Shown: positions 47,624-62,573 of the stretch, piece by piece
Layout of the letters: each line of letters starts with the position of its first letter
Numbering within the stretch: position 1 is the first letter of the stretch
Assembly: GCA_965195345.1 (NCBI GenBank)
Contig: OZ239628.1
Span: 864,001 to 928,000, forward strand
Source of the DNA: an uncultured Thiomicrospira sp.
GTDB lineage: Bacteria > Pseudomonadota > Gammaproteobacteria > CAKMZV01
Direction: 5' to 3'
Length of the DNA: 64,000 nucleotides
The notes under the pieces: generated by a model
Databases searched by the model: none
Told to the model about the DNA's origin: nothing
What the model saw: the letters and a program-made list of their open reading frames with translations, nothing else
Position numbers and translations under genes: made by a program

Positions 47624-48574
47624 ATGAATCATCTTGATTTTGAAGCTCCTATAGCAGACCTTGAAGAGAAAATAACTGAGTTGAGCCGTCTTGGCACAGA
47701 GTCTGGGATGGAAATTACTGAGCAGACGTTGAAGCTAAAAGAAGAGAGTCGGAAGTTAACCGAAAAAGTTTTTCGAAATTTGACTGATTGGCAAATAAGC
47801 AAGTTAGCCAGGCATCCGCTACGCCCTTATACTCGGGATTATATAAAATATATTTTCACAGATTTTAATGAATTGCACGGAGACCGTCATTACAAGGATG
47901 ACAGTGCTATTGTTGCAGGAATTGCACGCATTCAAGGTCGTTCAGTAATGGTTATTGGACATGAAAAAGGGCGTTCAACAAATGAAAAGATAAAACAAAA
48001 TTTTGGCATGCCCAGACCCGAAGGTTATCGTAAGGCTTTGCGTTTAATGCAGTTGGCTGAACGGTTTGGCATTCCAGTAATTACATTGATAGATACACCA
48101 GGGGCACATCCAGGCATTGATGCTGAAGAACGCAATCAAAGCGAAGCGATAGCGATTAACTTGCGAGAGATGTCTATGTTACGTATTCCCATTATATGCA
48201 CTGTTATTGGCGAAGGCGGTTCGGGAGGTGCATTGGCTATAGGGGTTGGCGATCATATTATGATGATGGAGTTTGCTGTTTATTCGGTTATTTCACCGGA
48301 AGGATGTGCTTCGATTTTATGGAAAAGTACGGAGAAAGCACCAGAAGCGGCAGAAGCATTAGCTCTGACGGCTCCTAAATTATTAAAACAAAAAATCATT
48401 GATGAAATTGTTCCCGAACCATTGGGAAGCGCTCATCGATCTTATGAAACAGCAGCACTCAATCTACAATCTTCATTGGTACGCGCATTAGATAAGTTTT
48501 GCGCAATGGATGTTGATAAGTTAGTGCATTTGCGTTATGAAAAACTTATGAATTACGGTAACTTTCAGGGTTGA
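47624..48574 (+). CDS. accA: Acetyl-CoA carboxylase carboxyltransferase alpha
   Basis: [32 protein letters not shown] and [15 protein letters not shown]. Confidence 0.97.
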
Positions 48575-49827
48575 AGAAAAGCGTACCTTCTGATCAGTTA
48601 TTGCTGAATCATTTATTATCATTCTTTAATAGTTGGGACGACATCAGTGCCAATTCGCCTCTTTATGTGGGATTGAGCGGCGGAGTAGATTCAGTCGTTT
48701 TATGTCATGCACTGCACTCAATGCTGTCATTGACCCAACGCTCATTTACTATTGTTCATATTAATCACCAGTTGCAAGATAATGCTGATGAATTCGTTCA
48801 GCAAAGTCAATCGCTTGCGCGAAAACTAAACGTACCGATTGTTGTGGAAGAAGTGCAGGTGGATAGTCAGCCACGCACCAGTATAGAGGCACAAGCGCGG
48901 GCAGTGCGTTATAAGGCATTCACAAAATTGTTGGAACCAAATGCTATGTTGCTATTGGCGCACCATCAGGATGACCAAGCAGAAACGTTTTTACTAAATG
49001 CATTGCGTGGTGCTGATATAAATGCCTTAGGAGGAATGCAAACGTTAAGGAAGCATAAAACTATATGGATTGGGAGACCAATGTTGCAAATAGAACGTAA
49101 AGATATTCTGAACTACGCTAGCATGTTTGATTTGCAATGGTCAGAGGATACGAGTAATACAGACGAAACGATCAAACGTAATTTTTTACGTCATGGAGTG
49201 CTTAAAAAAATCGAAGAGAATTTTCCAGAAAGTTCTAAAATGTTAGCCCGTAGCGCAAGTCGCTTGCAAGTTATCAATGCCCATATACAAGATGAAGCAG
49301 AGGCTTTTTTACAGACACAAACTAATGAATACATTTTGTCATTAGCAGGGTGGAGAGCTTTATCACCTGCGTTAGCTATGGCTGTGTTGAGATTATGGTT
49401 CCAAAAATATAGCGTACCAGCTCAGAGGCAATTGAATGAATTGGTTAGACTTTTCAGAAAAGAAAATGGGCGAGGTGAATTTCGATGGCGTTCAGAGCGA
49501 GGAGAAATCATTTGCTTTGTGTGGCATGATTATGTATTTTTATATTCTCATGAGCAATTGATGGGAACCTCCCCTATAAAGTATTTGCTGAGTGATGGTT
49601 ATGAGGTTCGATGCCGAGTCTCAGGGCAAAGAGTATTATTTAAAGGGCAATCTCGGCAGGTTAAAACGCTTTTGAAACAGATGGGCGTGTTTCCATGGTG
49701 GAGGGATAATTTCCCGATTTTATTTAAAAATGATAGTGCTGTAATGTTGGGAAATTTATGCTTGGATAAATACGAGCATTCAATTAAATTGATTGCTTCA
49801 TCTCCTTATCAATTAGGAGATTTATAA
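48571..49827 (+). CDS. tilS: tRNA(Ile)-lysidine synthetase
   Basis: [25 protein letters not shown] and RNFLRH. Follows accA. Confidence 0.93.
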
Positions 49828-49866
49828 ATAGAAAAAAGAAAGTGTTTGCGTAAAACAAGTTGAGGG

Positions 49867-50982
49867 TTACTCCACTTGGCTTTCTTTTGGAATGTCTACA
49901 TCAATAGTGTATTCATGTATTAAAATATTATCGTCAGCATACACTTGAGTGGTGAGAGTTCCTTTTGAACTCGCTGGGAAAACATACGCTGTGTAAATAC
50001 GCCAACGATTTCCACGAATCAAAAATTTTTTTTGGTTGATAATTTGATCATTGAACACCCATTGATGGCGAATGCTATGATCTTTGAAATTTCTAATGTT
50101 CGTATAGAAATAAACAATTTCATTATTGTCTATTTTTTCCAATGCTTCACCAGGTACACGGTCAACTACTGAATGTGTAAATAAAGGAGATGTAATTTTT
50201 AATTTTAGATAATCACTAGACAACGAAGACGTTGAGTGACTTTCATTCGAAGTATTCTTCGAAGCGCTCGTTGTATCATTATTGTCTATTATGGTTTCTT
50301 GATTTTGACTCAACAATTCTTTCTTTATTGGTTGAACATCTTTTTTGAATGTGGCACTGGAAGGTTCTTTAATTTTGAGCTCCTGCTCATTCTTTGCCTC
50401 ATGATCGTTGCTTTCTAATGCAGATGCACTTTCTATTTTGGTTGAACTATGGATCACATCTACACTTAGTATTGTTGGGACTGGAATTTTAGTTTCTTGT
50501 TGTTTTTTTTGTAACACAGCATCAAACGATTGATCGCGTGTACTCTTCCTTGCCTGTATGTTTTCTGATAATGCTGGCTTTTCAGGTTTATTTGTTTGAT
50601 CTTTTGAAGTCAATGAAGATGAGGTATTATCATTTGTGTTTGAGGAATCTGGCTTTGACGTTTTAGAAGCGGTAATTGAAAAAATAGGTATATACTTATC
50701 GTCCGTCAAGTTTCGATAGTTGAAATAACCAATGATTGATAAGAGTAAGAGAATCAGTAGTCCCCATAAGATGGACTTACTCGGGTTAGCGTGCGATATG
50801 CCTGCCGATTTGCAACCTGCTTTCCAACCATTTATCCATTTTCTTTTCAATGCTGCAGACGATAGATACCTATGAGAGCAGTATGAAGAGTCCATGCCTG
50901 CATTTCCTTTGTTAAATCCATCCTCATAGGCTGAACGTAATTCTTCAGAAGAATATTTTTTTTGATTACTATCAGTTGTCAT
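49867..50982 (-). CDS. Bitopic membrane protein: Rmf-like N-terminal domain, TM, S/T/K/E-rich linker and DUF2914-like C-terminal domain
   Basis: AYEDGFNKGNAGMDSSYC...KRKWINGWKAG, TM ILWGLLILLLLSIIGYF and the C-terminal VYFYTNIR...IRHQW...FLIRGNRWRIYT. Confidence 0.65.
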   Translation of the reverse strand: MTTDSNQKKYSSEELRSAYEDGFNKGNAGMDSSYCSHRYLSSAALKRKWINGWKAGCKSAGISHANPSKSILWGLLILLLLSIIGYFNYRNLTDDKYIPIFSITASKTSKPDSSNTNDNTSSSLTSKDQTNKPEKPALSENIQARKSTRDQSFDAVLQKKQQETKIPVPTILSVDVIHSSTKIESASALESNDHEAKNEQELKIKEPSSATFKKDVQPIKKELLSQNQETIIDNNDTTSASKNTSNESHSTSSLSSDYLKLKITSPLFTHSVVDRVPGEALEKIDNNEIVYFYTNIRNFKDHSIRHQWVFNDQIINQKKFLIRGNRWRIYTAYVFPASSKGTLTTQVYADDNILIHEYTIDVDIPKESQVE

Positions 50983-51087
50983 TTAATCTACAGGACTGGA
51001 ATTTTTTTTCTAATCGGTTTTTAATCCAATTAATGGGCATCTGCATTTACTTCTCTTCATTAAAATACATTGTATATCATTCAAAGT

Positions 51088-52008
51088 TTAACGTCCTTCA
51101 CATTGTTTTTTACAACGATTTACGGCAAGCACCGAACTAAAAAAACCGATGAGGATTGCAAAGGAAAAACAGTATAGATAGGCAGCGTTTAAATGCAAAA
51201 TTTGAACGTCACCTGCAGTGGCTGTTACAAGCAAGTTATTAATGACTTCAATGCTCCCCCAACTAATGCCAACGGCACAAAGAGTGCCAATAAATCCAAG
51301 TGAAGTGCCCCAAATTATAAATGGTTGATACAACTGAGTAAGCGTAGCTCCAAGTAATAGATTTATCGCTACTTCGTCGCGTTTTATTTGGATATGTTGA
51401 CTTAAAGCGTGATTTAAAATCAACCAGATAGCCACGATGAATACAGCACTTAGAAACCAGACCAAACGCTCTCCTAAAGTAATTAATTCTTGCACATGTG
51501 ACACCCATTCTTCATTGATATCTACTTCATAAACCATTTCGTCTTCAAGTAGTAATGATTTAAAAGAGAGGATTTGTTGCAAGCTTGATTGAACCGTTGG
51601 ATTAAGGATTATCAGATCGTGCAATGGGTTGTATCCAAGTAATTCAAGGGAGGCTTTTATGTCTTTTTCACCACGATATTCTTTCAATTCCTCAATAGCA
51701 TCGTCGCGTGAGATAAGGACAGGATTATTCTTTATAACACTGCCATAGGTCGCAATCATTGAATTGATGCGCTCCAAAGTTTCGGTACGTTCAGATGCAT
51801 TATTTGTATGTAAAAAGACAGTAATTTGTTTGTGTGCTGTTTGTACTCCGAGCCAATTATTGGAATTAATTAACAATGTAAGCCCAAGCAGGGGTACGCT
51901 AAAACTTGCAGCGATCACCAATATAGTCAGAAAGCTGTTGGAAAAAGTCATTTTCACATCAACCCAAAAGTTATGGTATCCGGTTGGTGTACTGGTTTTA
52001 TATTTCAT
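51088..52008 (-). CDS. ftsX: Cell division permease FtsX
   Basis: LTILVIAASFSVP, NPLHD, EEWV and RDEVAINLLLGAT. Follows ftsE. Confidence 0.85.
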   Translation of the reverse strand: MKYKTSTPTGYHNFWVDVKMTFSNSFLTILVIAASFSVPLLGLTLLINSNNWLGVQTAHKQITVFLHTNNASERTETLERINSMIATYGSVIKNNPVLISRDDAIEELKEYRGEKDIKASLELLGYNPLHDLIILNPTVQSSLQQILSFKSLLLEDEMVYEVDINEEWVSHVQELITLGERLVWFLSAVFIVAIWLILNHALSQHIQIKRDEVAINLLLGATLTQLYQPFIIWGTSLGFIGTLCAVGISWGSIEVINNLLVTATAGDVQILHLNAAYLYCFSFAILIGFFSSVLAVNRCKKQCEGR

Positions 52009-52694
52009 TGTACAAAGCCATTTTTCAATTTGATTTCATGAAATGCATGTGATTTTTTGAATCGCTCAACCAGTGCAATTTCATGCGTTGCAATCATAAT
52101 ACAAGTTTTTCGTGTTTGATTGATACTAATCAATAATTGCATGATTTTTTCAGATAAATCGGGATCGAGATTTCCGGTTGGTTCATCGGCTAATATGATT
52201 TTAGGATGACGTACTAACGCTCGTGCCAAACCAATGCGTTGTCGTTGCCCTGCAGACAGCGATAAAGGGTTGTATAGAGCATATTCGCGCATTTTAACTA
52301 ACGATAGTGCAGCTTCTACTTGACTTGAAAATTCACTTTTAGGGACGCCATTTAAATGCAGGGCAAGAGCAATATTATCTTGAACGTTCCGATCATTCAA
52401 AAGCATTGGTTCTTGAAAAACGATGCCCAATTTTTGACGATAGGAAGGAATTTGGTGATTTGAAGTTTTATTCAAACTATTACCAGCGACGTAAATTTCG
52501 CCATTTGTTGGTCGCTCCATTAAAGCTAATAATTTAAATAAAGTGCTTTTGCCTGCTCCTGAGGGTCCCGTTACAAAAGTTAATGAATTTGGTGCGACTC
52601 TGAAAGTAATGTTTTTTAACGCATCATGATGCGTAGGATGCGCGGGGTAACGCTTGGATACGTTGTCAAAATGAATGAAATTTTTATCAGACAT
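52005..52694 (-). CDS. ftsE: Cell division ATP-binding protein FtsE
   Basis: GPSGAGKST, LSAGQRQR and LADEPTGNLDP. Lies between ftsY and ftsX. Confidence 0.92.
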   Translation of the reverse strand: MSDKNFIHFDNVSKRYPAHPTHHDALKNITFRVAPNSLTFVTGPSGAGKSTLFKLLALMERPTNGEIYVAGNSLNKTSNHQIPSYRQKLGIVFQEPMLLNDRNVQDNIALALHLNGVPKSEFSSQVEAALSLVKMREYALYNPLSLSAGQRQRIGLARALVRHPKIILADEPTGNLDPDLSEKIMQLLISINQTRKTCIMIATHEIALVERFKKSHAFHEIKLKNGFVQ

Positions 52695-52726: not shown

Positions 52727-53623
52727 TTATCCATTGGGGTGTTCCTCTAATAATGCGCTTATGAATTCTTCGGCATTAAATAATTGTAAGTCATCTATTT
52801 TTTCCCCCACACCCAGATAAATGATTGGTAAATCTAGGATGTGAGCAATGCTGAGTAAAGCGCCACCTTTGGCAGTGCCGTCTAACTTACTGGCTATAAC
52901 ACCAGTAATAGGAACGATGTCCTTAAATGCTGCAATTTGTTTAACACCATTTTGCCCACTACCTGCATCAATAACCATCCAAATGTCCGGCTCTATTAAG
53001 GCATCTACTTTGTTTAGAGTGCGGATGATTTTTTCTAACTCGTTCATTAAATGCTTTTGATTATATTGTCTTCCTGCAGTATCTATAATGAGAATGTCGT
53101 AATTCCGAGCTTTCGCCATCTCTAATGCAGTGTAAGCAATAGCTGCAGGATCAGTGGTGTTTTTGTCAATAAATACATCGACATTGCTTTGAGAGCCCCA
53201 GCTAGAAAGTTGTTCATGGGCGGCTGCACGAAAAGTATCGCCACTTGCCAATAAAATCTTTTTCTCAGAAGCAGAGAATTTTTTTGCTAATTTACCAATT
53301 GTGGTTGTTTTTCCAGCGCCATTGACGCCAGCCATTACAATAACGTGCGGGAGAGGATGAGTTTTTTCGTTGTTAGAAGTATGGTTAAACATTGACAGCA
53401 TTACTGTAGAGATTGCTTTGATAGGATCTTCAGTTTTGAGCATGCGCAGTTGTTTAATAATATAATCAGTTGTATCAATGCCAACATCTGCGGATAGGAA
53501 TTGATCTTCAAGTGCGTTTAATGAGTCTTCATCTATTTTTTTTTGTGCAAAAAAAGAATTGAAGTTTAAACGCCTTTTGGTTTTGATTAGAGAATCGTGA
53601 AGAATTTGTTTGAATGACGGCAC
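52727..53623 (-). CDS. ftsY: SRP receptor FtsY (NG domain, lacking the long acidic A domain)
   Basis: GVNGAGKTTTIGKLA, DTFRAAA, DTAGR and KLDGTAKGG. Probable GTG start at 53623; the ORF is open to 53686. Confidence 0.93.
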   Translation of the reverse strand: MPSFKQILHDSLIKTKRRLNFNSFFAQKKIDEDSLNALEDQFLSADVGIDTTDYIIKQLRMLKTEDPIKAISTVMLSMFNHTSNNEKTHPLPHVIVMAGVNGAGKTTTIGKLAKKFSASEKKILLASGDTFRAAAHEQLSSWGSQSNVDVFIDKNTTDPAAIAYTALEMAKARNYDILIIDTAGRQYNQKHLMNELEKIIRTLNKVDALIEPDIWMVIDAGSGQNGVKQIAAFKDIVPITGVIASKLDGTAKGGALLSIAHILDLPIIYLGVGEKIDDLQLFNAEEFISALLEEHPNG

Positions 53624-53653
53624 AACTAATTTTAAAGAGTGAGTATTAATTAT

Positions 53654-55018
53654 ATGGCTAGATACAGTGAGTATAGCAGTTTGCAAGTGGTTTTGTTCAG
53701 TCTATTAAGCATATTTATGTTGTCAAATTATAACGCTCATGCTGCTGATTCGCCTGTGCATGAAAAAAAACTTGCGAATGGATTCAGAGTGTTTGTAAAG
53801 GTTGATAATCGATCGCCAGTGGTATCTTCACATGTTTGGTATCGAGTTGGTTCAGTCGATGAATATAGTGGGTCTACAGGATTGTCTCATATTCTTGAAC
53901 ATATGATGTTTCGTGGTACAAAAAAACACCCTAAAGATGCATTTTCGAAGATTGTTAATCAATTTGGCGGAGAGCATAACGCATTTACATCTCGAGATTA
54001 CACCGGTTACTATCAAACCATTGGGTCAGAGCATTTAGAAAAGATGCTTGAGTTGGAAGCAGATCGTATGCGTAACGTTATTTTTGAACAAAAAGGCTTT
54101 GAAAAAGAGCGTGATGTAGTTGCAGAGGAACGTCGATATCGTGTTGAAGATAAACCGCTTAATAGACTTAATGAATTATTCTATGCGACTGCTTATGTTA
54201 CCAGTCCATATCATCATCCAATTATCGGATGGATGAAAGACATAGAGGAGACTCAAATTGATGACTTATACCAATGGTATAACCGATTCTACACACCAAA
54301 TAATGCATTATTAGTGGTTGTTGGAAAAGTGAAGCCAAAAGAAGTGTTTGCTATGGCCGAGGCAACATTTGGAAAAATCAAGCCGAATGTCATGAAGCCT
54401 CTTAAGACGCGCCCTGAAATTCCTCAAAAAGGAGAGCGTAGAGTGGTAATGGAAGCTGATGTTGATTTGCATTATGTTTTGATGGGGTATCACGTCCCCA
54501 GTTTGAAAACAGCGACACAAGATCAGTTGAAAGATGTGTATGCGCTTGATGTTTTATCAGGAATTCTTTCAGGCAGCAGTAGCGCACGTTTGCCAAAAGT
54601 GCTGGTACGTCGTGATAAAGTTGCTAGTAAAGCAAGCAGTTATTACAATATGACTTCTTTAAAGAGTGCTTTGTTTATACTGGATGGGATAGCCGCTCAT
54701 CAAGGCAGTACTTTGTCGGTCGAGCAAGCATTGAATGAAGAAATTGATAGACTCAAAACGGAGTTAGTCAAGGTTGAAGAGTTGGAACGAATAAAAACAA
54801 ATATAAAAGCATCTGAAATATTTCAAAAAGATTCAATTTTTTATCAGGCATATGAAATAGCTTTACTTGAAACAATCGGTGTGGGTTGGAAATTAACTGA
54901 TAAGTATTTAAAAAACATCTCCATGGTTACACAAGAAGATTTACAGCGAGTTGCACGTAAATACCTAGTGAAAAATAACCGTACCACAGCTGTGCTTAAC
55001 CCAACGGAGGAACGCTAG
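53654..55018 (+). CDS. M16 zinc peptidase, catalytic subunit
   Basis: WYRVGS, HILEHMMF (HXXEH), NAFTSRDYT and EERRYR, with a signal peptide. Start uncertain (53639, 53654 or 53717). Confidence 0.9.
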   Translation: MARYSEYSSLQVVLFSLLSIFMLSNYNAHAADSPVHEKKLANGFRVFVKVDNRSPVVSSHVWYRVGSVDEYSGSTGLSHILEHMMFRGTKKHPKDAFSKIVNQFGGEHNAFTSRDYTGYYQTIGSEHLEKMLELEADRMRNVIFEQKGFEKERDVVAEERRYRVEDKPLNRLNELFYATAYVTSPYHHPIIGWMKDIEETQIDDLYQWYNRFYTPNNALLVVVGKVKPKEVFAMAEATFGKIKPNVMKPLKTRPEIPQKGERRVVMEADVDLHYVLMGYHVPSLKTATQDQLKDVYALDVLSGILSGSSSARLPKVLVRRDKVASKASSYYNMTSLKSALFILDGIAAHQGSTLSVEQALNEEIDRLKTELVKVEELERIKTNIKASEIFQKDSIFYQAYEIALLETIGVGWKLTDKYLKNISMVTQEDLQRVARKYLVKNNRTTAVLNPTEER

Positions 55019-61160: not shown

Positions 61161-62573
61161 TCAATTATTAGGGATCACTAATACTTGTCCGATAAGGATA
61201 TCATTGGTTGTTAAATTATTTCGTTTTTTCAAGTCGGTTACTCGAATGTTGTAAAGTTGAGCTATGTGATATAGCGTATCTCCATTCTGAACACGATATT
61301 CTTCTTCTTCTTCCTTAGAGTCGAACTTGGGTAGCGAGCGGCGCACAATGAGGTGCTTATTTTTGTATTCGCGCAATCCTTTGAAAATTGTTTGTGCGAT
61401 ACGCTTTTGTACAGTTTTTGAGGATAATCGCTTAGCATCTTCTTTGTTGGTGATAAATCCAGTCTCAATTAATATAGCAGAGATTGATGAACGTAAAACA
61501 GCAAAGTTTGCGCTATGTGTTTTTTTAAATGCAATAGGTCCTATAGAGGATAAATTTTTCAACATGATTTGTGCAAGCATTGCGCTTTGATTGCTTTTGG
61601 CTTGCAATTGGATTTCAGATAAAGCTTTTTTGAGATCACTTGGCATGTTGTCGAAGTCAACATCAAATCCGTCTACAATGTTTTGATTTCTAGCTAATCC
61701 CCTTGCTAGCGCGTCAGACGCTTTTTCAGAAAGCGTATATACAGATGCTCCTTTGATTTCTGGGTTGGACGGTAGGGCATCGGCGTGAATTGAAATAAAA
61801 ATATCAGCACCTGCTTGATTTGCTCGTTTTACGCGCTCCATAAGAGGTATTTTCTTATCAGTTTGCCTAGTAGCTTCCACGTCAAAGTAAGGGTCTTTCT
61901 CAAGAATCTCAAAGAGAATGCGAGAAATACTCAAGACTATGTTTTTTTCCGTCACACCATTGGCTTGGGCTCCTGGATCAATGCCTCCATGGCCCGGATC
62001 TAAAACAACCTTCGCTTTTACTTGAAATGTTTTTTCTGCGGAATTAATGTCAAGGGGTTTGTCTGTTGCAGGTGTTGATTTTAAATCCAAATCTGATGAT
62101 GAATCGCCGTTCGGTTGATCTTTCTTATAGTAACCTTTGGTAGAGGGTTTGCCAAATATTACCACTAATTGATTATTTCCTTTTTCGGTAATTAATACAT
62201 CATCAATTTCGACGTCTTTATACAAATCGAAAACAATTCGGGTTGTGAGAAAACCATCTTCTAGTCGCACTCCAGTGCGAATGTTTTTCAATATGGCATC
62301 ATCTAAATTTCGGTCAAGTTTAACGCGCGTTTTTGCATCTTTGATATCAATAACATATCGAAATGGCTTTCCTTCTCCAAAATTAGCTTGAAGCTTAAAA
62401 GCTTTATATTCAAATGATTTATTTGCATTGATATTAGCTTGAGCAGTTTCTTGATCTGCAGAATAGCTGATGTGAACGCCTAAAATAGTCGTCACTGCAT
62501 AAGACCATGTAGGGAACAGTAGAGAAAAAAACAGGGCAAGCAGAATGTAAGAGACTTTGAAATTATTTTGCAT
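61161..62573 (-). CDS. amiB: N-acetylmuramoyl-L-alanine amidase (Amidase_3 with C-terminal LysM), AmiB-like
   Basis: VLDPGHGGIDPGA, TEK, FISIHAD, ANFAVLR, LIETGF and the LysM YRVQNGDTLYHIA. Lies between tsaE and mutL. Likely ATG at 62573. Confidence 0.88.
   Translation of the reverse strand: MQNNFKVSYILLALFFSLLFPTWSYAVTTILGVHISYSADQETAQANINANKSFEYKAFKLQANFGEGKPFRYVIDIKDAKTRVKLDRNLDDAILKNIRTGVRLEDGFLTTRIVFDLYKDVEIDDVLITEKGNNQLVVIFGKPSTKGYYKKDQPNGDSSSDLDLKSTPATDKPLDINSAEKTFQVKAKVVLDPGHGGIDPGAQANGVTEKNIVLSISRILFEILEKDPYFDVEATRQTDKKIPLMERVKRANQAGADIFISIHADALPSNPEIKGASVYTLSEKASDALARGLARNQNIVDGFDVDFDNMPSDLKKALSEIQLQAKSNQSAMLAQIMLKNLSSIGPIAFKKTHSANFAVLRSSISAILIETGFITNKEDAKRLSSKTVQKRIAQTIFKGLREYKNKHLIVRRSLPKFDSKEEEEEYRVQNGDTLYHIAQLYNIRVTDLKKRNNLTTNDILIGQVLVIPNN

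Follow-up and report, generated by a model that had tools for sequence, protein, structure and literature searches.

Ribosome modulation factor (RMF) is treated as a small soluble factor that is specific to gammaproteobacteria, and the question raised by the locus described here is what a domain of this kind would be doing at the cytoplasmic end of an envelope protein. The locus lies in a 64,000-nucleotide stretch of DNA from an uncultured Thiomicrospira sp. (the window, G000:C1:864001-928000), part of a 1.92 Mb genome that is 99.7% complete and assembled as a single contig. P0001, the protein in question, is encoded by a single open reading frame (ORF) of 371 codons whose start is the first ATG after the upstream in-frame stop. 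The initial annotation had read it as an RMF-like N-terminal domain joined through one transmembrane (TM) helix and a low-complexity linker to a periplasmic DUF2914-like domain, and profile searches and structure prediction bear out each element of this anatomy. The RMF-DUF2914 architecture is real, conserved and rare. As to its role, the reading that we favour, with about even confidence, is that of a bitopic DUF2914-family envelope protein which is tied to the ftsY/ftsEX cluster and carries a repurposed RMF-fold head.

The relationship of the head to RMF is apparent from both sequence and predicted structure. The Pfam RMF profile (PF04957) matches residues 11-57 of P0001 with E=4.2e-4 and 20.8 bits, under its cut-off of 27.9, and the match spans profile positions 5-49 of 53, nearly the whole model; the NCBIfam RMF profile (NF011162) gives E=6.5e-4 and 19.5 bits versus a cut-off of 40. 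All five orthologues in the family match the Pfam profile at E<=5e-4 (best E 9.9e-5). A phmmer search of 177,635 PDB sequences with residues 1-66 returned only two matches at E<=10, both of them RMF (E=0.016), while a profile built from nine heads found E. coli RMF with E=3.3e-9 (RMF residues 3-50) and Vibrio RMF with 4.5e-4, compared with 0.012 for the best unrelated entry. Similarity between profile and sequence therefore runs in both directions, which places the head in the RMF-fold superfamily in the sense of homology only. Over 401 genomes of the class the head profile ranked the fused proteins first and canonical RMFs next, and a full-length profile matched only RMFs in the PDB at E<=1.

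Structural comparison points the same way. The head modelled on its own by AlphaFold2 has a predicted local distance difference test (pLDDT) score of 84.9, and in a Foldseek search of the PDB the RMF chains take ranks 1-3 (TMt 0.77, 0.73 and 0.59) with E-values of 0.1-0.3, which are weak because the domain is small (about 55 residues). VIA-align, which is independent of Foldseek, places RMF first of 48,161 chains (Z 6.1, root-mean-square deviation 2.9 A over 51 amino acids (aa)), by a small margin over the runner-up chain at Z 5.4. RMF and the fused heads have in common the core motif G-[YF]-x-x-G-x-[AS]-G ... W-x-x-G-W, and the fold core is kept in P0001 as G22, F23, G26, A28-G29, W49 and G52-W53; across ten fused sequences G22, W49, G52 and W53 never vary, and G26, A28, G29 and G56 hardly do. 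Judged by sequence and model together, the head is homologous to RMF. In a short, unrooted tree of 22 RMF-like domains over 46 columns, which leaves out three rows missed by the extraction pattern as well as the head from the genome G269, ten fused heads are set off together by a branch (support 88/92, recovered in 98% of bootstrap trees) and adjoin the canonical RMFs (93/87), apart from a group of tail-anchored acidic proteins. The inter-helix loop is three residues longer in all ten fused heads (35 residues versus 32-33 in RMF), and since this is common to all of them it fits a single origin. The fused head is thus a genuine, single-origin RMF homologue in this clade.

Does the head also act like RMF? 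RMF proper (E. coli RMF in PDB 6H4N, 4V8G and 9IOT; Vibrio RMF in 2JRM), the homologous fold and nearest group on the tree, is soluble, about 55 aa long and strongly basic in its N-terminus and helix 1, whereas P0001 is a 371-aa membrane protein that is acidic or neutral there. Beckert et al. (bioRxiv 10.1101/382572) describe E. coli RMF as hydrogen-bonded to the 16S rRNA backbone through Arg3, Lys5, Arg8, Arg11 and Arg15. In their account its helix 1 reaches in between h28 and h37/h40, its loop and helix 2 clasp the 16S rRNA at the 3' end, and the RMF cavity is ringed by S2, S7, S9 and S21 and covered by S1. In the phmmer alignment the five rRNA-bonding residues correspond to K9, S11, E14, S17 and D21 of P0001, that is, four of the five are non-basic and two of these are acidic. 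Further positions were compared between five genomic canonical RMFs and ten fused heads: position 3 is basic in all five RMFs versus one fused head, positions 5 and 6 in all five versus none, and position 11 in four versus one, while position 15, basic in three of the five RMFs, is acidic in nine of the ten fused heads. Position 45 is basic in eight of the ten fused heads and position 37 in five. Summed from the N-terminus through helix 1 to the conserved glycine, the net charge is +3 to +5 in canonical RMFs versus -6 to 0 in fused heads; over the loop and helix 2 it is -2 to +2 versus +1 to +5. Read from these alignments, the charge pattern of the fused heads is inverted relative to RMF. In the structural model helix 1, the acidic one, points away from the membrane, and the basic helix 2 ends, together with the fold, about six residues before the TM helix; positive charge near a TM helix is expected anyway, and hence for helix 2.

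Four defining features of a functional RMF were tested, and three of them are lacking. The two-helix fold is kept, but P0001 scores below both RMF cut-offs (Pfam and NCBIfam), its N-terminal extension and helix 1 are not basic, and in place of a small soluble protein of about 55-60 aa there is a 371-aa chain with one TM helix and a periplasmic domain. With the basic N-terminus and helix 1 lost or inverted, the fused head is most likely not a canonical 30S-binding, 100S-forming RMF. The proposal of the initial annotation that the protein tethers or silences ribosomes at the membrane thus finds no support at the level of the residues that would contact rRNA.

The remainder of the protein is an envelope module. 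In an AlphaFold2 model of the full-length protein, built on a ten-sequence alignment, the head helices (residues 12-27, 37-40 and 43-60) and the C-terminal beta-sandwich (255-365) are predicted at pLDDT >90, the TM helix covers residues 67-94, and residues 96-254 fall below 50. This linker of about 160 aa is the gappy, unconserved part of the alignments, and neither its length nor its sequence is kept. The Kyte-Doolittle core score is 2.56 at residues 71-87, and P0001 has no second hydrophobic window. In all 11 fused proteins, each with one TM helix, the flank on the N-terminal, head-bearing side is more positive than that on the C-terminal side, from which an N-in/C-out orientation is predicted; P0001 would then be a single-pass inner-membrane protein with its N-terminus in the cytoplasm rather than the periplasm. 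Pfam DUF2914 (PF11141) matches residues 302-357 with 28.0 bits versus a curated cut-off of 23.6, which makes P0001 a member of that family; the profile reaches 31.4 bits at P0001 in a six-frame genome search, and all five orthologues match. Its conserved residues are F268, P277, T294, H306, W308, F320, G324, W327-R328 and G341. The structural matches of the C-domain are generic immunoglobulin (Ig)-like sandwiches with many ties at Z 9-11 (RhoGDI, the Wzt carbohydrate-binding domain, CARDB, macroglobulin and accessory domains of glycosidases), and no specific function can be derived from so generic a set. The ESM Atlas yielded only DUF2914 clusters for the C-domain, with scores of 0.88, and no PDB entry was matched by DUF2914 at the sequence level.

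How widespread is the architecture? Among 41 relatives, two-domain orthologues of P0001 occur in all four other genomes of the window's family, and C-domain-only matches in four further genomes. A HMMER scan of 1.84 billion representatives recovered 501 proteins at E<=1e-3, nearly all of them through the C-domain only, and a hidden Markov model of the head detected an RMF-like head in nine of the best 150 DUF2914 representatives. Six-frame genome searches add the proteins of G081 and G269, and that of G001 differs from P0002. The number of distinct proteins with an RMF-like head and a DUF2914 domain stands at 12, all from metagenome-assembled genomes or metagenomes, named 'hypothetical protein' where the source gives a name, and only 20-33% identical overall. 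Other routes brought in nothing further: a word-indexed search for homologues of near-equal length returned only the query itself among 4,038 candidates, a locus search with a five-sequence alignment gave four loci, seemingly the same four relatives already found, and a metagenome scan with the alignment A4 gave 141 pattern matches, none of them a relative. No description of the combination of an RMF-like domain with DUF2914, also under CrpP/RMF wording, was found in the literature, supplements aside. In a preprint on the evolution of hibernation factors (bioRxiv 10.1101/2025.11.04.686544) the word 'transmembrane' is absent from the main text, and its supplements may list RMF variants. Two relatives exceed the Pfam cut-offs for both RMF and DUF2914 (P0016 and P0006, with 32.0 and 28.5 bits for RMF), so the architecture should be visible, unnamed, in domain databases. 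The statement in the initial annotation that no description of it is known would accordingly apply to print and probably not to those databases.

Within the DUF2914 family the RMF-like head is one attachment among several. A hydrophobic segment, either a signal peptide or an N-terminal anchor, lies within the first 30 residues in 102 of the best 150 representatives, and a longer N-domain followed by a TM helix is found in 25. By this crude hydropathy scan a signal peptide or TM helix thus precedes DUF2914 in 127 of the best 150, which places the domain outside the cytoplasm there; the remaining 23, some of which are fragments, have no hydrophobic segment in the scan. P0004, P0024 and P0025 have clear Sec-type signal peptides, and the DUF2914 domain is predicted to be extracytoplasmic. 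Unlike P0001 with its RMF-like head, most members have nothing but the signal peptide or N-terminal anchor, or else carry DUF2914 in tandem copies. Where other heads occupy the same chassis of TM helix, linker and DUF2914, they include an Arm-DNA-bind_3-like domain (P0049 and P0097, 29.2 and 25.0 bits) and short conserved N-termini that resemble beta-strands (P0037, P0074, P0129, P0132 and P0142), while P0008 and P0068 combine a pilin-like N-terminus and ankyrin repeats with two DUF2914 copies. The chassis linker in other members is likewise long, and acidic or rich in Ser/Thr. Such interchangeable heads on a shared chassis suggest a common function located in the periplasmic domain, with the heads acting as adaptors.

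The genomic setting supplies the remaining clue (Table 1). The initial annotation had placed the gene downstream of ftsYEX, and Pfam matches to the neighbours agree: ftsX lies directly upstream on the same strand across a 105-bp gap, and on the other side 39 bp separate the stop codons of tilS and the fused gene. The fused gene adjoins ftsX or ftsY in four of the five genera examined, though the proteins are so divergent (20-33% identity). In G081 the head-to-tail packing of ftsE, ftsX, the fused gene and a sigma gene suggests translational coupling, and in G269 the stop codon of the fused gene and the start of the SLT_4 gene share one base. The G081 sigma gene has Pfam sigma-70 regions 1.2, 2 and 4 and can be read from its sequence as rpoH, the sigma-32 gene, which in E. 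coli follows ftsX. About 767 kb separate rpoH from the fused gene in the window's genome, where the latter stays with ftsX; the link is therefore to ftsYEX rather than to rpoH. That rpoH (353 bits versus TIGR02392) is found about 1 kb downstream of a 424-aa FtsX-family permease frame, probably LolC/E-like. FtsY itself differs in length between the genomes, from the short form of 319 aa in the window to 424 aa with a long acidic N-terminal region in G269. Scans of positions 49700-51300 were uninformative as to promoters (seven promoter-like sites versus 6.0 +/- 2.5 expected) and terminators (one terminator-like site, on the opposite strand, versus 1.0 expected), and an Rfam search of the window gave no match. 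Matching sequencing runs number four, all of one study, with none listed as RNA.

Table 1. Segments of the fused gene, its neighbours in the window and in related genomes, and other loci mentioned in the text; positions refer to the window unless a locus or contig is named.
Feature	Location	Coordinates	Strand	Basis or remarks
Whole gene, 371-aa bitopic membrane protein (P0001), stop codon included	window	49867..50982	-	ORF list and translation
RMF-fold head, residues 11-60, predicted cytoplasmic	window	50803..50952	-	helix 12-27, short helix 37-40, helix 43-60
Single TM helix, residues 67-94, hydrophobic core 71-87	window	50701..50784	-	AlphaFold2 helix and Kyte-Doolittle
Low-complexity S/T/N/K/E-rich linker, residues 95-254, predicted periplasmic and disordered	window	50221..50700	-	pLDDT
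DUF2914 domain, residues 255-365, C-terminal Ig-like beta-sandwich	window	49888..50220	-	Pfam PF11141 and pLDDT
ftsX	window	51088..52008	-	Pfam FtsX E=7.2e-9; TIGR00439 E=1.5e-36, below its cut-off
ftsE	window	52005..52694	-	Pfam ABC_tran E=1e-33; overlaps ftsX start
ftsY (signal recognition particle (SRP) receptor), short form, 319 aa	window	52727..53686	-	Pfam SRP54 E=3e-71 and SRP54_N; TTG start as listed
tilS, convergent	window	48571..49827	+	Pfam ATP_bind_3, TilS, TilS_C
Amidase_3 (AmiB/C-like)	window	61371-62009	-	498-aa frame
Locus of rpoH in the window's genome	L044, outside the window	G000:C1:1680422-1682581
ftsX, then fused gene, convergent tilS	G000, G001, G002 (g1)
ftsE-ftsX-fused gene	G004 (g3)
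AFG1-like ATPase, then fused gene	G003 (g2)
ftsE-ftsX-fused gene-sigma gene	G081 (another family), L034	2-3135		14-nt and 4-nt overlaps
ftsY-fused gene-SLT_4 lytic transglycosylase lipoprotein	G269 (third family), L053	275-2965
Tail-anchored RMF-like member	L035	1411-1815	+
Tail-anchored RMF-like member	L039	1426-1809	+
Tail-anchored RMF-like member	L042	1438-1785	+
Tail-anchored RMF-like member	L043	684-1061	-
Tail-anchored RMF-like member	L037	1438-1827	+

Could the head still bind ribosomes? A membrane-tethered factor for hibernation or translation control, whose head would bind the small subunit perhaps via the basic loop and helix 2, is in our judgement rather unlikely; such a factor would keep ribosomes at the membrane or silence them there, perhaps on periplasmic sensing or together with FtsY, the SRP receptor. 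In favour of it, the head is genuinely homologous to RMF and lies nearest to the canonical RMFs on the tree, its positions 45 and 37 are often basic, and the gene adjoins ftsY in G269. No separate rmf gene was found either: P0001 is the only RMF-family match at E<=1 in the window's genome, and across the family's five genomes the fused gene is in each case the sole match, with no stand-alone rmf. Furthermore, the only S30AE-family protein of the genome is of the short HPF type (107-aa frame), which according to the preprint on hibernation-factor evolution (bioRxiv 10.1101/2025.11.04.686544) needs RMF for 100S formation in E. coli. A canonical rmf above the Pfam cut-off occurs, however, in only 10 of 300 sampled genomes of the class, and its absence is therefore unremarkable in this family. 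Membrane-tethered hibernation factors do exist, and YqjD, ElaB and YgaM of E. coli, as described in bioRxiv 10.1101/2024.08.16.608256, share with this idea the concept of a ribosome-binding domain at the inner membrane; yet their anchor is a C-terminal tail, they lack a periplasmic domain, their binding site is on the 50S subunit at the tunnel exit, and in sequence they bear no relation to P0001. P0001 is of a different build, with its TM helix at residues 67-94 of 371 and 277 residues to follow, and none of their Pfam families is among its matches at E<=10. Against ribosome binding stand the rRNA-bonding positions listed above, the neutral to acidic N-terminus and helix 1 of all ten fused heads, and geometry: the RMF cavity described by Beckert et al. 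lies under S1, and with a tether of about six residues the 30S subunit would probably have to rest flat against the membrane, S1 being displaced. More elaborate, and quite unlikely as a joint claim, is a trans-envelope ribosome tether in which the head engages the small subunit or the 3' end of 16S rRNA via the conserved loop and basic helix 2, and a periplasmic Ig-like sensor on a long leash controls the parking and release of ribosomes beside the SRP receptor and FtsEX; to this claim belongs the view that fused heads and soluble RMFs, as sister groups, share a recent ancestor, of which either may be the original form.

Two further explanations do without the ribosome. P0001 is laid out like a single-pass anti-sigma factor, with a TM helix between a small N-domain in the cytoplasm and a domain in the periplasm, and in G081 the gene stands between ftsX and rpoH and overlaps the latter by 4 nt, so that the head might sequester a soluble regulator, with sigma-32 as the candidate, and release it as the periplasmic domain dictates; an SRP-linked regulator would be a variant. 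We regard this as very unlikely: P0001 matched no anti-sigma domain family in Pfam or NCBIfam, the sigma gene is adjacent only in G081 and far away in the window's genome, and binding of sigma-32 by the head is purely hypothetical. The opposite extreme is a periplasmic scaffold whose function resides in DUF2914 and the tether, with the RMF-like head a captured, drifting domain that would lack a specific partner and contribute anchoring and topology only. The interchangeable heads and the many members with only a signal peptide or N-terminal anchor would agree with it, but the head is as conserved as the C-domain among proteins that are otherwise so divergent, four of its residues are invariant in ten sequences, and it is predicted at high pLDDT. 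Conservation and a confidently predicted fold are not expected of a drifting domain, and we hold this explanation, too, to be unlikely.

The favoured reading, of a DUF2914 envelope protein with a repurposed RMF-fold head, draws on what is constant and what varies. The constant part would be the C-terminal Ig-like beta-sandwich outside the cytoplasm, which often appears to be connected by a long disordered tether to a signal peptide or membrane anchor, while the cytoplasmic heads seem interchangeable. The periplasmic domain may bind an envelope component, the linker would span the periplasm, and the head would serve as a membrane-proximal cytoplasmic adaptor for a putative partner; P0001 may be co-inherited, and is probably co-expressed, with the ftsY-ftsE-ftsX cluster. 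The alternative voiced in the initial annotation, in which the Rmf fold would have been taken over as an interaction module connected with SRP or division, fits better than its ribosome proposal in view of the adjacency to ftsX or ftsY, while the partner that it calls for is only putative. FtsN, DamX and DedD are bitopic SPOR-domain divisome proteins and offer a parallel in layout: their cytoplasmic N-domain is small, one TM helix leads into a long disordered linker in the periplasm, and a small globular C-domain ends the chain. They also have in common with P0001 a genetic link to cell-division genes. They differ in the C-domain, SPOR in their case and DUF2914 in P0001, which does not match SPOR (PF05036), and a septal or peptidoglycan role of P0001 is hypothetical.

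Several observations weigh against the favoured reading. DUF2914 has no known function, and of the three papers that mention it, the two listed concern, judging by titles, unrelated subjects. The DUF2914-only genes of G013 and G038 have unrelated neighbours, and a conserved gene order may have been inherited without being functional; the ftsYEX-rpoH arrangement is old in its own right. Partner and ligand of P0001 are putative, while the loop and helix 2 of the heads are still basic and might permit a non-canonical contact with RNA or the ribosome. No FtsX orthologue was found in G269 (99% complete) with the window's FtsX or TIGR00439 as query, the sole match being partial and in a 421-aa permease frame. 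Nor is there an obvious division gap for P0001 to fill, since the window's genome encodes two SPOR proteins, four M23 peptidases and one Amidase_3. Two specific proposals were rejected. FtsX or FtsEX cannot be an obligatory partner, because G269 keeps the fused gene with no FtsX orthologue found by those two queries, and a replacement of FtsN, EnvC or an amidase is set aside given that SPOR, M23 and Amidase_3 genes are present. The two SPOR matches lie at other loci, and the single Amidase_3 gene is situated about 10 kb from ftsYEX. A co-folding of FtsY, FtsE, FtsX and the head scored 0.00 versus a mark of 0.32, with controls not run, and is evidence neither way.

The RMF-like sequences of the class are more diverse than the canonical factor. 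Matches to Pfam RMF at E<=1e-3 occur in 22 genomes, and a basic N-terminus of the MKRQKRD type in only five ORFs. Many matches are non-canonical (L020, L033, L036, L040, L031 and L041), some being small neutral or acidic proteins such as L020, which at 46.6 bits exceeds the Pfam cut-off; the match of L041, inside an FeoB-like frame, is spurious. Other gammaproteobacterial genomes contain a second RMF-like family that is membrane-bound and whose members are 115-134 aa long. Close to the N-terminus they have an acidic RMF-like domain (motif EGY...NPY...W.EGWW), and at the C-terminus a hydrophobic tail anchor. The neighbours of this family are varied and are not ftsYEX, and on the tree it groups apart from both RMF and the fused heads.

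What follows is that the RMF fold is not confined to the soluble factor: a conserved membrane protein carries it as a cytoplasmic head, and it is present in a separate tail-anchored family, too. The fused head is a natural experiment that separates fold from function in RMF, and its stripped rRNA-binding charges caution against naming a protein 'ribosome modulation factor' on the strength of a Pfam match. For DUF2914 the ftsY/ftsEX cluster is a first consistent genomic anchor and a starting point for experiments. If the head were to bind ribosomes after all, P0001 would represent a second, independent kind of membrane-tethered hibernation factor.

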